A stretch of DNA of 17,436 bases, taken from positions 1 to 17,436 of the IMG/VR virus record IMGVR_UViG_2778261136_000004; one strand, 5' to 3'. Shown here in pieces: positions 3,001-9,000 of this stretch. This DNA comes from a virus. Taxonomy: Duplodnaviria; Heunggongvirae; Uroviricota; Caudoviricetes. The first letter of the stretch is position 1; each line of letters starts with the position of its first letter. The position numbers are program-made.

Positions 3001-6000
3001 TTTCTTTCGTCCATGGATTAAGGCCGTACTGGTTGGCAACGATCAGCAATGCGATGAACTGCGCATCGCTGGCATCACCTTTAAATGCAGTCTGGCGAAG
3101 AGTGGTGATCAGTTCCTGTGGGTCGACAGAATCCATGCCGACACGTTCAGCCAGCTTCCCTGCCAGCGTTGCGAGAGCTGTACTCATCTGGTTTATACCT
3201 CTGAATCAATATAAATCTGGTGGCGGGCAATGGTTTCAACCATGTACCGGATGTGTTCTGCCATGCGTTCCTGAAAATCGACATCGTCATCAAATGCACG
3301 GGCAATGGCTTTTTTGCTGGCTCCATGACGTTGCAGATTATCGATGCACAGCGATTCAAACAGGTGCTGGGGCAGACCTTTTTCCAGGTCGTCCGCCAGT
3401 TCAGTCTCATTTTCTTCACGGGCAATTTGCCGGTAGTGTCGTGCCCATGACTGCTCTTCAATGCGATCGGGGATAAGCCAGGCATTCATGATTTATCACC
3501 TCCAAAATTTTCAAGCCTGTTGGCAATCATGATTGCGATATCAGGGATTGCTGGCGCTGTTGCGACGCATGCAGGGTTTGCGCACAAACCATAGACGGCT
3601 GCAAGCACGAGCTGCCTTTTCCAGTCGAAATCTGCTTGCTCTGAATCATCATTATTGTCAGAAGCATCACTATCTGGATCGATGTGAACAACCGAATCGT
3701 GTTCCTGAGTTGTATCAACAGCATTTTTCTGAATGTATTCATTCTTCATTTGTGCCTGGTCATCTCCAGCAGCGGTCTCATTTTCTCCAAAAGTTTCAGC
3801 GTAAGTTTCATCTCCCATTACTGGACCACAGTCAGGGCAATGCCCGCCACTGTTCTGACCGCATGCGGTGCAAACCTTTTCCACTTCCTGTTGCATTACT
3901 GGCCCAGGCTGTTGCTCTTCCGGTCCGTTTTGTTGCGTATCCGGGCTGTTTTGTTCCACTTTGGATTGATTCTGGTCCTCAGTGTCGCGAGTCTGGATCC
4001 CCTTCACCCATTTCGGGTCGGTTGGGTCGCTGATGCCTTCAACGAACTCCCCACGAGAGGCAGCCAGCAATTTGTCTGCATCGACAGGATTTTTGGGCAA
4101 AATGTTTTTCCTGGCTTCATAGAGTTCTGCTCTCAGTTCCTGGTATTTCGTTTCTACAGATGAGACATTTTCCAGTGATTGCGTGTCCGCATTATGTTTA
4201 ACTGGAATTTCTTCCACTGATTCAGGCGCTGCCTGTTCATTAGACATTGCGTCCGATGTTTGCTGCTTTTCTTCATCGTCATGTATCTCTTCTGCTGTTC
4301 CGCGCTGCGGCATCGGGGCTGATGAGCGACCGCAGGCAATTTCCACGATTTCCGGATCCGGGTTAGAGTGATCGGTTTCGGTCAACACTTTGTTGAGATA
4401 TTCAGTCACGCGCGCCGGGATAGCCTCAATGCCAATTGGTGCTTCTTTCACTGAAGCCACCACAATGGCGCGGGAATAATCCAGCCCACCGGGCATGGCG
4501 ATGAATTTGTCACGGAAAACAGAAAAGGGCGGTTTATTCTCTGCAACGATTTCTTCAACGCGTTTTGCATGTGCAGGGTGCAGGTTATAAATATCCACAT
4601 CCATTGAACGGGCCAGAACGCCAGTGGCAATGTCTCGCGCCAGTGATGCCTGATTGTGGGTAAAGCCTTCGCCACGATCGGTAAGATTTCCGCCGCCAGC
4701 GTTAGCACCGGAAGGCGTACGGGTGATGCCTGTAACACAATTTCCTTTCTGCCATTCTTTTGTCAGCAATCCCTGATCCACATAGTCTGTTTTCATCCAG
4801 GTGGAGATGAACTTGTCGAATTCGGCCGGGCCGATATGACGGGTTGTTGAGTGAGAGAATGCCTTTCCAACGGATTGTGCCAGTCTTCCCAGATGATAAT
4901 TCGTCAGCTTATCCAGTTCTGGATGTGAACGCACAGCAGTAAGCAGGCTCTGAAGGTAACTGTCTTCTGTGTCCATCTCCAGACGAATCACCTGATTACG
5001 TTGTTCTGGTGTGGCGTGATGCCGGTATTTTCCATCTTCATCCTTGCTGAAGAAGAAGAGGTGAAGGAAGCGATGAGTAAGGCTCAGAGTGGCGACGGGA
5101 ATTTCACACTCAGAACAGTTATCGTCGCTGTCCGGGGATTCGCTTTTCTCCACATCATCCGGAATAGTTCCGTCCAGGTTATCGTTGTCATCGCCAGCAG
5201 TTGTGGCATCTTCACCGTTGATGTTGTCATCGAAGGGGATAGCCATCATGGTGATGCCATCGTTACCGCCTTTTTCATAGCGGTTGCAGAATTCAGTATC
5301 AAACACGCCTTCCGGTGGAAGGTCATTCACGACGGGGAAATTTACGCGAACGGGTTTTTTGAAATCATCCTCGTCGTAGCCTGCATCGTCCATGGCTGCA
5401 ATGCAGCGGGAAACTGCGACAGAAAGTTTTCTGGTATCAGCCCAGAAAAAACCGCCTTTGATGCCAAGGCGTTTTCTGACTTTATCGTTTTTTGCTTCGC
5501 AGTGCAGTGCAAAAGTTTGTTTATCAGCGCTCATTGTATTTAAACCTCTGGCTGGGTTAGAATTAGCGGCCCTTTGTCTGATTTCTCCGAATACAGTGAC
5601 GCAGGGGGTAGTCCGGCAGCCTGCGCTGCCGGATTTTTTATTTCAGTGTAAGGTTGCCTGGTTTGTTGTTTTGTGAGTTGTTTTTTTCTTTTCATGCTGG
5701 CAGTCAGAGCAGTTGCATTCGCCATTTTCTCTGAGAAGTTGAAGTGCCAGGGTCAGTTCCTGAATTCTTTGTGGTTCAATATGACTGTCGACAATTTCAG
5801 ATGCAGCATGAATATATGGGCTGGTGGTTTCGCAATATAAACCGAAGGAAACAAAGCGACTGTCTTTATATTCGTTATTTCCAACTTCTGTAAGCACTGA
5901 AAAAGAAAATACAAAGTCGATTTTGTATTCTTTGCATATTTTACTGATGCGTTCTGCAATTTCTTTGAGTTCATTTATTGCATCAGGGCTGGTTTCGGAA

Positions 6001-9000
6001 AATATTTCATTTTGCGCAAGTTCTTTCATTTTGATTTTTCCGTGATTGATAATTAATGCGGTTTTTATTTCGGCTTGTCTGTTACATATATGGAAGGTGT
6101 ATTTTAATTACTCGTCACAACGACTCTGCTTTTACGGGTAAGCCATCGCGCCCGATGAATACTTTAATCATGCAGTTGGTAATGCATGTTTTTGTAGTCA
6201 GGCTACGAATATAGAGCTTTCTCTTTTCAATATTGTTTGTTGAAGCGATATATGTGCGGCCTTCATGAAGAACATAATCGCCAGGTGTCACGCACTGACG
6301 TGGTATTTCATCAGTTCCGAAGTGATGAGCAATCATAATTATCTCCATTTTCACAAATGAATTTTGTTGATGCGGTGCCTGGTGCCTCCAGGTGACGTTA
6401 ACCAGTTAACAATTAACGCCGGAGCAGGGGATGATGATTTTCCGTGACATCCTGTCGGTTTAACTGTTCCGCGTGCGCATAGCCGCATTCACCGCATCAT
6501 AAAATTCACTTTAAAAAAGGGCGGACATCAGCAATCGGCAAACCGATGTCCGCCAAAGAGGATATTGATACATGGATGTTGCAGCGGGGTTGTCACTCAG
6601 GCGTCTGGGGCGATTTCCATTATTTACGATGCACTTGAAACATTCCTTGATCGAAAGCTTTCATCTGTCACCGACGGAACATCGAGTAAGCAATAACATT
6701 TAACACACACTCTAAATAACAAGGGGTGGGCTTGATGCCGTTCTTTTCAAGCTCACTCGTAATCACCTCCAGAAGTCGTGCGCCCATGAGAATTGTCTTG
6801 TGGGATGAAGCTATTACGCCGTCGCTGATATTGCTGTTTATTTCTATTGCTTCATTTTCACCATTCGCGCTAACTTCGGATATGTTATTTTCACTCTCCT
6901 GTTTCAGCGCTTTTTCTGCCATCCGGATGCGTTCCTGCGTTGCGGAGTTTGGGCTAAGTCGATAAACCTGTCTGGCATCTTCCAGAAGCAGGGCGATAAT
7001 GTGCTTCAGTTCTGTTTCGTTCATAGTTAACTCCGGTAGTTGCAATTTATTAATATCAGGCGGTCAGCTCTTTAAGCTTCTGAACTGCTTTATTCATTTC
7101 ATCCATACAGTCGATGAATTCGTCCAGTTTAAGCTGCATTTTTCCGGCGGCCTGAAGAATTTCAAGTTTTAAGGGCGCAAGTTTTTTGTTGAATACATCA
7201 TCTTCCTGGCGTTTTTTCTCCGCAATTTCGGCGGCTTTCAGCAATTCTTCCGCCTGCTTTCTGAGTATTTCTGGTGAAGGTGAAACTGCTTTTAGGTTAT
7301 TCATTTCAGGTTCCTGTTGTTGCAGAATTAATTTGTTGCATTCTCTGCGTGAGCGTTTCATTGCAGATTCGCACTTCTTGCAATAAATGGCTCTCCCGTC
7401 ACGTTTGCTGGCATCTGAATAAAAATCATCGACTGATTTTGTCTGCCCGCATTTGGTACATAATTTTGATTGAAGGTCCTTAATGATTGTGACGTTTCCT
7501 TCCCGTTTGGGATATCCATATTTTTTGTGGCGGAAAAAGGTTACTCCGTTACCAGAACCTTCTTTTCTGACCTTAAATACAATGATGCTTTCCCGTTTAT
7601 CGATAAAATCGATGAGCTGGTTTCTCTCTTTTCCTGACAGTTCGGCAAACGTCTTAACTTTTTTTGTAACCTCCGTAAGGCGAACACCATCAGGCATTTT
7701 TTCAACGAAGTTTTTAATCTCTGCAAGCGGACGCCATAATTTTTGCGGCAAAACTGAAGGCGTGGTCATCAATCACCTCGCTGTTATTATTCCTGATTTG
7801 CGATAGCCAGCTGCGTAAAGTGCAGTGTTTGGAAGACAAGTAGAGCCTTCATATTTTCTGGTTAATGTCGTTATCGTGACTACTTCAGCTCGCATTGCGG
7901 CTTTGCGTTTGCACTGTAAGTACACCCGTGAAGGTGTGGGGCGGTGCAGTTTATCAGCGCTTGATGCCTCCAGACCCTGAAACTCGGCCCTGCGTGCTCT
8001 GCGGCGGGAAGCTGCGGTGCCTTTAAATTCTGTTTTTCTGGACATAGATTTCTCCCGAATAAACTTTGGCGATGCAATCTCGAAGCCTCCCCTGAGATGA
8101 TTGCTTCGGCATTGCACCCGACAGCTTATGCGGTTGGGCGATCTGGCTTTGCAGCCACGTAGTCGAGTGTTCGACGTTGTTTAAAGAGCTTTCCAATTGG
8201 GGCCGCGTTGTTATCGGTGACCTGTTGGCAAAATGATTATTAACTGCTGGTTAGTGTTAGTCAATAACCAAAAGTTAAAATTATTGTGGGAGAATTCTAT
8301 GTTTTTGATTTTTAGTTAATTATTATTGCTTGTTCGGTGAGCGACGGTTATCAAGTATGAAGGGGTATAGAAGCTAGGATAGATGAGTTTTGGCTAGCTG
8401 GGTTAATAAAAACCCGGCTCTGAGGCCGGGGGAGAGGGGCTAAAGCAGAACTGAATACCAGAAAACTTTTCCGATAATCTCCACGCTTTGAGTATCTGCT
8501 TCTTCGTCAGGGTACTCTTCACTGTTATAACTGCGTATGATTAGCTTTCCACCGGGGCGTCTGTACAATAGTTTTATACGCTTCAGTTTTTCATCACCGA
8601 CACCAGGCTGTGCGATGGCGTAGAGTTTGCCGTCAACAATACGTTTGTTGTTTGTGTCTACTGCGATTGTTGTTCCATCTGGTATCACGGGCTCCATGCT
8701 ATCACCAGTAGCCGGAAAACAAAGCACACCAGAACCATCACTGTTAGCTCCGACACGGCGCAGGGTTGCTTTTGAGAAGCGTAATTTAAAACCATTATGA
8801 TCTTCGCAATGAACTCTTCCGTCACCGCATGCAAACTCAATGTCTTTCAGATATGGCACCTCAACTTCATCATCTCGTAGTGGTGTATTTCTGTCCCAAG
8901 TTTCAAGGGAACCCCATTCTGATTCGTTTGGAATTGAAGGTCGCTGTTTTACGGATGGCTCGTTACTGCCATACTCCAACCACTCCGGCTTCACGGAAAG

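Follow-up and report, generated by a model that had tools for sequence, protein, structure and literature searches.

What is a short AT-rich islet with two small genes doing among the early genes of a lambdoid phage? The islet lies at 5643-6354 of a 17,436-nucleotide (nt) stretch of DNA, here called the window, that corresponds to positions 1 to 17,436 of IMG/VR virus record IMGVR_UViG_2778261136_000004 (Caudoviricetes). An original prediction made from the sequence of the window had described the islet as a horizontally acquired moron in the pL operon, and had suggested that its two open reading frames (ORFs), of 128 and about 79 amino acids (aa), might form a toxin/immunity, abortive infection (Abi), or anti-defense module. 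Our best explanation is that the islet is a division-inhibitor cassette without evident transcription signals of its own, carried in the early-left (pL) operon by a Shiga toxin (Stx)-converting lambdoid phage of the POCJ13/75-02 type, and we consider this explanation, taken as a whole, to be highly probable. The cassette contains kilR and a second gene, here called orf128, and its main features are as follows.

6115-6336, minus strand: kilR, 73 aa (MIAHHFG...), Rac-type Kil, from matches to NF008465 and PHROG 294 and from BLASTP
5643-6029, minus strand: orf128, 128 aa, ending in ...ECNCSDCQHEKKKTTHKTTNQATLH, PHROG 2016, function unknown
5549-6355, minus strand: replaceable cassette of kilR, a ydaE scar, orf128, and the downstream spacer, from similarity to three dicB-ydfD prophage loci (L046 to L048)

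A kilR ortholog in the islet

Both predicted ORFs are present where they had been placed. The shorter one (6115-6354, minus strand) measures 79 aa when it is counted from a GTG at 6354, but its start is the ATG at 6336, which has a Shine-Dalgarno sequence (GGAG) 7 nt upstream and gives a product of 73 aa. This start agrees with the annotated starts in POCJ13 and Escherichia coli O22:H8 strain 154 and with the 73-aa KilR of K-12. The product matches the NCBIfam model NF008465, "FtsZ inhibitor protein," over profile positions 1 to 72 of 73 (152.4 bits, cutoff 92, E = 2.5e-45) and PHROG 294, "Kil protein for bacterial septation inhibition" (3.2e-36). A BLASTP comparison with KilR encoded by the Rac prophage of a K-12 derivative gives 89% identity across the full 73 residues, and kilR with its leader is 83 to 87% identical to Rac DNA over 6100-6532. 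The median ratio of nonsynonymous to synonymous substitution rates (dN/dS) for kilR is 0.11 among 16 distinct sequences, and a survey of 5426 complete E. coli genomes detected kilR-like DNA in 1907 of them. There is thus strong evidence, as far as sequence comparison can provide it, that the ORF is kilR, an ortholog of Rac KilR.

The toxicity of Rac KilR is high; Z-rings are disrupted at low doses and MreB is mislocalized at high ones, and FtsZ overproduction suppresses the toxicity (PMC12482147). Toxicity requires a C-terminal tail of 12 residues in a length-dependent manner, such that truncations lose activity, while replacement of the last three residues with alanine leaves activity intact and their identity is therefore dispensable (PMC12482147). 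Because the C-terminal tail (last 12 residues) of the KilR encoded in the window is full length, being as long as that of K-12 KilR, its function is expected to be retained. We predict that it would inhibit both FtsZ-dependent division and MreB-dependent elongation.

Some relatives carry a premature kilR stop codon (GAG TAG; locus L008, about 3195-3413) that yields a 71-aa product without the last two residues. Published truncation data on the loss of three C-terminal residues suggest that such variants could still block division yet lose cell rounding.

orf128 and its family

The orf128 product matches PHROG 2016 (4.2e-68), and profile searches of Pfam, NCBIfam, PADLOC-DB v2, and PDB returned nothing significant. 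The best Pfam hits (OB_NTP_bind and DUF1281_C, E-values of 0.03 to 0.1) were treated as noise, and the best PDB hit, the designed propeller protein Ika8 (E = 0.005), in which no single stretch passes alone, was rejected. A word-indexed search of 5.8 billion clustered proteins yielded 26 clusters of relatives; every one with a named source is an E. coli hypothetical protein, and full-length members are 66 to 98% identical to the query. A profile search of 1.84 billion representative proteins recovered only the family itself plus a spurious repeat protein (P0028). By these searches, the family is a small group confined to prophages of E. coli and Shigella. The gene is present in 77 of the same 5426 complete genomes of E. 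coli, and no report on the protein turned up in a literature search.

The reading frame is intact in the window and at all 42 other loci with a full-length copy, which together represent 21 distinct sequences. Its length is either 387 or 393 nt, the variants differing by multiples of three. The median dN/dS is 0.39, and 51 alignment columns are invariant. The conserved core comprises residues D38 to E48, Y54 to R58, and S70 to A76 (DxVxSFSxLTE, YKDSR, and SPYIHAA), and a CxxC motif (C107 and C110) in the C-terminal tail is invariant. This pattern of substitution marks orf128 as a real coding gene on which purifying selection of moderate strength acts. The original prediction had allowed that the ORFs might turn out to be noncoding and unconserved; the 43 intact full-length copies of orf128 and the dN/dS values of both genes show otherwise.

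The orf128 product has an isoelectric point of 5.2, with a net charge of -9 over residues 1 to 104 and a basic C-terminal tail. It is soluble and has no transmembrane segment (maximum Kyte-Doolittle value, 0.76 over 19 residues). It is probably oligomeric or metal-binding by way of the conserved CxxC tail. Its Shine-Dalgarno sequence is weak (GGA). BLASTP gave no alignment between the orf128 product and RacC at E <= 100, and a Pfam scan gave no match to YdfD/DUF1482, with which only the position is common.

In one IMG/VR prophage (L045, 3000-3725), orf128 is cut at codon 54 by an insertion, one end of which we take to be an IS1 inverted repeat, and kilR is absent from the locus. Two 154-aa database proteins, P0014 and P0019, represent orf128 copies in which a frameshift near the A-run AAGAAAAAAAC, at the HEK codons or immediately beyond them, leads into the frame of an overlapping 61-aa ORF; such shifts are likely to be homopolymer errors or mutations.

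Base composition of the islet

The islet is AT-rich, as had been noticed. GC content is 0.474 for the whole window, 0.381 for 5643-6354, and 0.360 for 5700-6110. Within the islet, it is 0.377 for orf128 (0.326 at third codon positions [GC3]), 0.423 for kilR, and 0.306 for the 85-nt spacer between them. When GC was calculated in sliding segments of 712 nt, the minimum for the window (0.374) fell at 5659, inside the islet, and 0.47% of such segments were as low as the islet. The sole comparable low-GC region is the stx segment at 14.4-16 kb. The prediction had called for codon usage to be examined as well as sliding GC, and here the two measures part: when synonymous codons are scored by likelihood, with the window's remaining genes as reference, neither gene of the islet stands apart from the backbone (orf128, z = +1.79; kilR, z = +0.39). 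The anomaly of the islet is one of base composition, not clearly of codon choice.

The islet is part of a leftward early operon

Over 5400-6700, the window shares 99.4% identity with Shigella phage POCJ13 and 99.2% with phage 75/02 Stx, and the identity of the islet to a prophage in E. coli O22:H8 strain 154 is 99.8 to 100%. In the records of POCJ13 and strain 154, the minus-strand gene order is cI, N, two hypothetical genes, kilR (annotated Kil), orf128, a RecE-like gene, gam, bet/recT, exo, and int. Because of this annotated order in POCJ13-like records, we place the islet inside a leftward early (pL-type) operon, and the predicted embedding in the pL operon is borne out. One of the two genes is a characterized prophage toxin, and the segment as a whole is already annotated in the near-identical published phages POCJ13 and 75/02 Stx.

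The cassette occupies an exchangeable slot

Similarity between the window and dicB-ydfD prophages (L046 to L048) stops at 5548, just past the start codon of the RecE-like gene, and resumes at 6356, at the 3' end of the leader that precedes kilR. Between these borders, related prophages carry either dicB-ydfD or kilR-ydaE-racC, so that the comparison with syntenic prophages proposed in the original prediction found the islet replaced by other genes. The alternative occupants of the slot are also GC-poor (0.38 to 0.43 for dicB-ydfD and 0.39 for Rac racC-ydaE-kilR) beside a recE gene of 0.49 to 0.51. Low GC is therefore a standing property of the slot, general to its occupants, and is no evidence of one recent acquisition.

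These observations support part of the view that the islet is a horizontally acquired moron. Its base composition is distinct, and in syntenic phages it is replaced by other genes; autonomy and a single acquisition do not hold up. A scan with a sigma-70 consensus found no promoter-like site in 6030-6114 or 6337-6512, and a terminator scan found no same-strand terminator between kilR and orf128 or after orf128; the hairpin downstream of orf128 has its T-run on the opposite strand. For lack of such a promoter and terminator, the cassette is not a strict moron and relies on the pL transcript. Nor was it acquired as one unit, because kilR and its leader are common and Rac-like, orf128 is rare and has mosaic borders that differ from those of kilR, and ydaE was deleted between them. 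Among known lambdoid morons, the stx genes of the same window resemble the cassette in having lower GC and GC3 than the backbone and in being either present or replaced when otherwise syntenic genomes are compared. Unlike such morons, the cassette has no flanking promoter or same-strand terminator and is embedded in the pL transcript.

Three early operons offer parallels. The Rac arrangement kilR-ydaE-racC-recE shares with the window a 73-aa KilR (89% identity), common leader DNA, and the location of kilR in a leftward early operon, upstream of a RecE-family gene. It differs in that the window has ydaE deleted to a scar, racC replaced by the unrelated orf128, and leucine instead of tryptophan as the last residue of KilR; moreover, the window belongs to an apparently complete Stx phage with N and a cI-type repressor, whereas Rac is cryptic and RacR controlled. 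The Qin-type arrangement dicF-dicB-ydfD presents the same succession of upstream flank, small RNA (sRNA)/terminator hairpin, structured leader of ~170 to 180 nt, division inhibitor, accessory gene, and recE, and the cassette borders coincide at 5548 and 6356. In contrast, DicB (which acts via MinC) is unrelated to KilR, YdfD (DUF1482, an IspG inhibitor) is unrelated to the orf128 product, and the hairpin in the window is not DicF. In the lambda pL operon, which runs N ... cIII-kil-gam-bet-exo, a small host-killing division inhibitor is likewise promoter-proximal to the recombination genes and N dependent. There is no sequence relationship between lambda kil and kilR. The effects of KilR are reported to be distinct from those of lambda Kil (PMC12482147).

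Terminator hairpin, structured leader, and spacers

The noncoding elements around the two genes are as follows.

6513-6554, minus strand: intrinsic terminator, 13-bp stem GGCGGACAUCGGU / GCUGAUGUCCGCC, 9-nt loop, then C and U6, from the fold of 6334-6580
6337-6512, minus strand: kilR structured leader, ~176 nt, with a long-range stem AAGUGAAUUUUAUGAUGCGGUG / CACCGCAUCAACAAAAUUCAUUU that closes a multibranch domain, from the fold
6030-6114, minus strand: kilR-orf128 spacer, 85 nt, with the ydaE scar and the orf128 ribosome-binding region ACGGAAAAAUCAAAAUG
5610-5645, plus strand: GC-rich hairpin CCGGCAGC-GCAG-GCUGCCGG followed by a T-run, from the scan (5610-5635; 11 pairs, 7 of them GC) and the fold

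The islet had been predicted to be bounded by a tL-like terminator on one side and a convergent plus-strand terminator on the other. Both hairpins exist (6554-6513 and 5610-5645, respectively), but the tL-like one lies ~180 nt upstream of kilR, beyond the 5643-6354 interval. It was missed by the terminator scan because its loop is 9 nt long and was visible in the fold. The hairpin occupies the position of DicF in related prophages, with which it has the upstream flank (AGTGACAACCCCGCTGCAAC) and the downstream flank in common. Its score against the DicF model (RF00039; 15.8 bits at 6519-6568) falls short of the gathering threshold of 48, and the loop lacks the DicF motif ACUCCG, presumably the element of DicF that pairs with ftsZ. 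A true DicF (62 to 77 bits) is present at the aligned position of two kilR-orf128 loci (L036 and L026, 2963-3014 in each) and of one dicB-ydfD prophage (L046, 4578-4629). At least three other hairpin variants were seen in the DicF position (L002, L003, and L033).

The leader between this terminator and kilR folds with an energy of -85.7 kcal/mol (z = -4.57 relative to shuffled sequences), its closing stem is about 20 bp long, and the kilR Shine-Dalgarno sequence (GGAG) lies directly 3' of this stem. Nearly identical 5' and 3' leader blocks precede dicB in other prophages, and only the central ~40 nt differs. In the literature searched, which did not cover work mentioning both DicF and kilR, no description of a leader shared by kilR and dicB was found. 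Against the model of the prophage sRNA STnc100/PasD (RF02076), the leader gives a sub-threshold match that spans the whole model, with 34.4 bits against a gathering threshold of 47 (E = 1.7e-5). The window also has an STnc100 copy of its own at 16232-16445 (plus strand, 195 bits), just downstream of an 89-aa stxB-like ORF (15884-16153); the literature identifies this element with EcOnc27/sRNA103, an sRNA that binds Hfq and lies downstream of stx2a (PMC12711010). When the leader is compared with that copy, changes on both sides preserve 10 of 41 predicted pairs, and this single comparison supplies all of the covariation. A 45-aa ORF inside the leader (6351-6488) is most likely not a gene and was rejected because its PHROG and "DicB" matches stem from misannotated N-terminal extensions through the conserved RNA leader.

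Our inference is that pL repression and the terminator at 6554-6513 together hold kilR silent, possibly with a contribution from the leader, and that only N-modified transcription expresses it. For Rac, kilR is reported to be silenced by Rho and NusG (PMC12482147).

The spacer between kilR and orf128 is 268 nt long in loci that contain ydaE and 85 nt in the window. Alignment with two of the compared loci (L038 and L002) reveals a deletion scar at 6096-6114 (minus strand), where the first ydaE nucleotides survive after the kilR stop codon. The ydaE start codon that overlapped the end of kilR has been destroyed (TCATGG to TCGTTG), which changes the last residue of KilR from tryptophan to leucine (W73L). 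This comparison indicates that ydaE was deleted between kilR and orf128 in the lineage of the window.

The hairpin at 5610-5645 sits in the 108-nt spacer between orf128 and the RecE-like gene, the fold of which has a z score of -2.0. It has a T-run solely on the plus strand and, as read in the mRNA, forms a hairpin that lacks a U-tract. From its sequence, the hairpin is terminator-like for rightward (antisense) transcription. It was rejected as a conserved terminator, since most loci have an A.C mismatch (GCUACCGG) and a perfect stem is found only in the window and in L004. A 61-aa ORF at 5540-5725 (minus strand; PHROG 29463, 5.9e-44) overlaps this hairpin and the 3' end of orf128. In most loci its frame is shifted by a 1-nt indel in the A-run, and for this reason it is unlikely to be a gene.

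Functional relationship of kilR and orf128

Full-length copies of orf128, in the window and at all 42 other loci, lie directly after kilR or kilR-ydaE and directly before the same RecE-like gene. This constancy invites the view, contained in the original prediction, that KilR is a toxin and the orf128 product its cognate antidote (or the reverse), the two being inherited as a unit. With kilR immediately upstream at every one of these loci and KilR highly toxic when expressed (PMC12482147), the view has a precedent in the analogous dicB-ydfD pair, which interacts functionally: YdfD lysis depends on cell division, and DicB blocks YdfD-induced lysis (PMC8835842). We nevertheless consider it very improbable. 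Because kilR was found in 1907 genomes and orf128 in 77, KilR normally occurs without orf128 and an obligate toxin/immunity pair is not supported; in Rac, kilR is instead followed by ydaE and racC, both unrelated to orf128. Neither is there a compact bicistron with its own promoter, as the genes do not overlap, are separated by the 85-nt spacer or by the whole of ydaE, have different mosaic borders, and showed no promoter-like site, autoregulated or otherwise. Their adjacency can also be explained by the equally constant juxtaposition of orf128 with the RecE-like gene. What remains of the predicted toxin/immunity module is one host-killing, toxin-like gene, kilR; the genome counts speak against its pairing with orf128. 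The orf128 product might instead be a second host effector that is tuned by division arrest in the manner of YdfD, either promoting lysis or targeting the envelope or metabolism. Like ydfD, orf128 is found downstream of the shared leader, between a division inhibitor and recE, and its product is small and predicted to be early expressed and nonessential. The argument is one of position, however, and the absence of similarity to YdfD/DUF1482 in the Pfam scan, together with the soluble acidic character of the protein, which gives no sign of membrane or enzyme targeting, makes this role improbable. A role as an anti-defense or host takeover protein, like Gam or Ral and directed for example against restriction, a nuclease, or abortive infection, deserves to be taken more seriously, although we still doubt it. 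It would suit the location beside gam and the recombination genes in the early-left operon, the acidic N-terminal 104 residues (net charge, -9), the patchy, mosaic distribution and low GC that are typical of accessory counter-defense genes, and a narrow, fast-evolving family with a dN/dS of 0.39. Location is a weak argument, though, and there is neither homology to anything characterized nor a structure model to add to it.

The original prediction had also proposed an Abi or defense module. No PADLOC-DB v2 family matches the orf128 product or KilR at E <= 0.1, and this proposal is not supported for either protein. That the islet is a lysogen-expressed defense or Abi moron that excludes other phages is scarcely credible in any case, even though it has low GC and hairpins on its flanks and DicB, its positional analog, is reported to protect against some phages (PMC10448788): neither a promoter-like site nor a same-strand terminator was found, its position after a strong intrinsic terminator in a repressed pL operon predicts silence in the lysogen, and constitutive KilR would be lethal. 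A chance ORF in AT-rich spacer DNA is a next to negligible explanation of orf128. The lack of homologs outside E. coli prophages, the low-confidence structure, and the weak Shine-Dalgarno sequence (GGA) would fit such an origin, but the frame is open in all full-length loci among 21 distinct sequences down to 66% protein identity, with indels only in multiples of three, a dN/dS of 0.39, and a conserved core; most loci, by contrast, have a 1-nt indel that breaks the overlapping 61-aa frame. The probability that is left for orf128 falls to an unspecified accessory function.

Our position is that the orf128 product would be a nonessential, cytoplasmic, early-expressed accessory protein of host interaction, working separately from KilR and not serving as its antidote. 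Several points weigh against this position or against the cassette model as a whole. Every orf128 copy examined is adjacent to kilR, and by analogy with YdfD and DicB there might be a one-way dependence of orf128 on KilR. Read-through that depends on N and cotranscription of kilR with orf128 are inferred from lambdoid precedent. The promoter scan used a crude sigma-70 consensus, which weak or noncanonical promoters could escape. KilR of the window carries W73L and five to seven other substitutions. AlphaFold2 runs on orf128 with 18 and 15 sequences gave pLDDT values of 47.6 and 55.5, too low to interpret, and a Foldseek comparison of the model with BFVD found no match at E <= 0.001. Because of the low pLDDT and the empty Foldseek result, no structural inference is drawn for orf128. 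The all-helical model is also not trusted, as it conflicts with the strand-like pattern of residues 37 to 67.

Model for expression of the cassette

By analogy with other lambdoid phages, loss of the cI repressor would allow leftward transcription from pL, which would be modified by N. The N-modified transcription would read through the terminator at 6554-6513, cross the ~176-nt structured leader, and express kilR, then orf128, and then the RecE-like gene, gam, bet, and exo. KilR would disrupt Z-rings and, at higher dose, the localization of MreB, leading to arrest of host division and elongation in early lytic growth. The orf128 gene would be cotranscribed with kilR and would occupy the slot that is taken by ydfD after dicB or by ydaE/racC after kilR.

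The finding is a largely ordinary one, a known kilR with an ORFan neighbor, and matters little on its own. Its wider interest is that two unrelated division inhibitors, KilR and DicB, each stand behind the same terminator/sRNA slot and leader and are followed by a payload gene that varies. This shared-leader framing could guide searches for phage effectors and for the means by which toxic early genes are silenced. The corresponding region of the lambda operon encodes host takeover functions such as Gam and Ral, and orf128 is a clean, conserved ORFan confined to Stx-type and related prophages. We offer as a speculation, and an unlikely one, that orf128 (PHROG 2016) is the founding member of an early effector family restricted to E. 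coli prophages, acting either in counter-defense or as a host effector coupled to the division arrest caused by KilR. If so, the DicF/hairpin position, the STnc100-like leader, the division inhibitor, and the variable effector would constitute a conserved plug-in platform of lambdoid early-left operons, and its payload slot would be a hunting ground for such effectors.

Neighboring genes and other features of the window

Upstream of the terminator, the leftward operon contains the following genes, the first two assigned from annotation in near-identical records.

8440-9210, minus strand: cI-like repressor (S24 peptidase type)
7773-8045, minus strand: N-like antiterminator
7056-7772, minus strand: 238-aa hypothetical protein, PHROG 2539, between N and the terminator
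6668-7045, minus strand: hypothetical protein of ~118 to 125 aa, PHROG 2982, between N and the terminator

In the 238-aa PHROG 2539 protein, a Cys-rich central segment resembles zinc ribbons such as those in endonuclease VII and Lar-like proteins. The PHROG 2982 protein (~118 aa) exists in two forms among the loci, about 75% and 100% identical.

Downstream of orf128, the RecE-family protein (682 aa; 3486-5534, minus strand) adjoins a complete lambda-type gam-bet-exo set. It covers only profile positions 1 to 593 of 877 of exodeoxyribonuclease VIII, at 749 bits against a cutoff of 1269. In Pfam it matches the PF06630 domain alone, with no nuclease domain. From these matches, the protein looks like a RecE N-terminal region that has been kept without the catalytic domain.

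Elsewhere in the window, an Rfam match to sRNA-Xcc1 (75.7 bits, gathering threshold of 53) lies at 11689-11772 on the plus strand, in the intergenic region after the replication genes.

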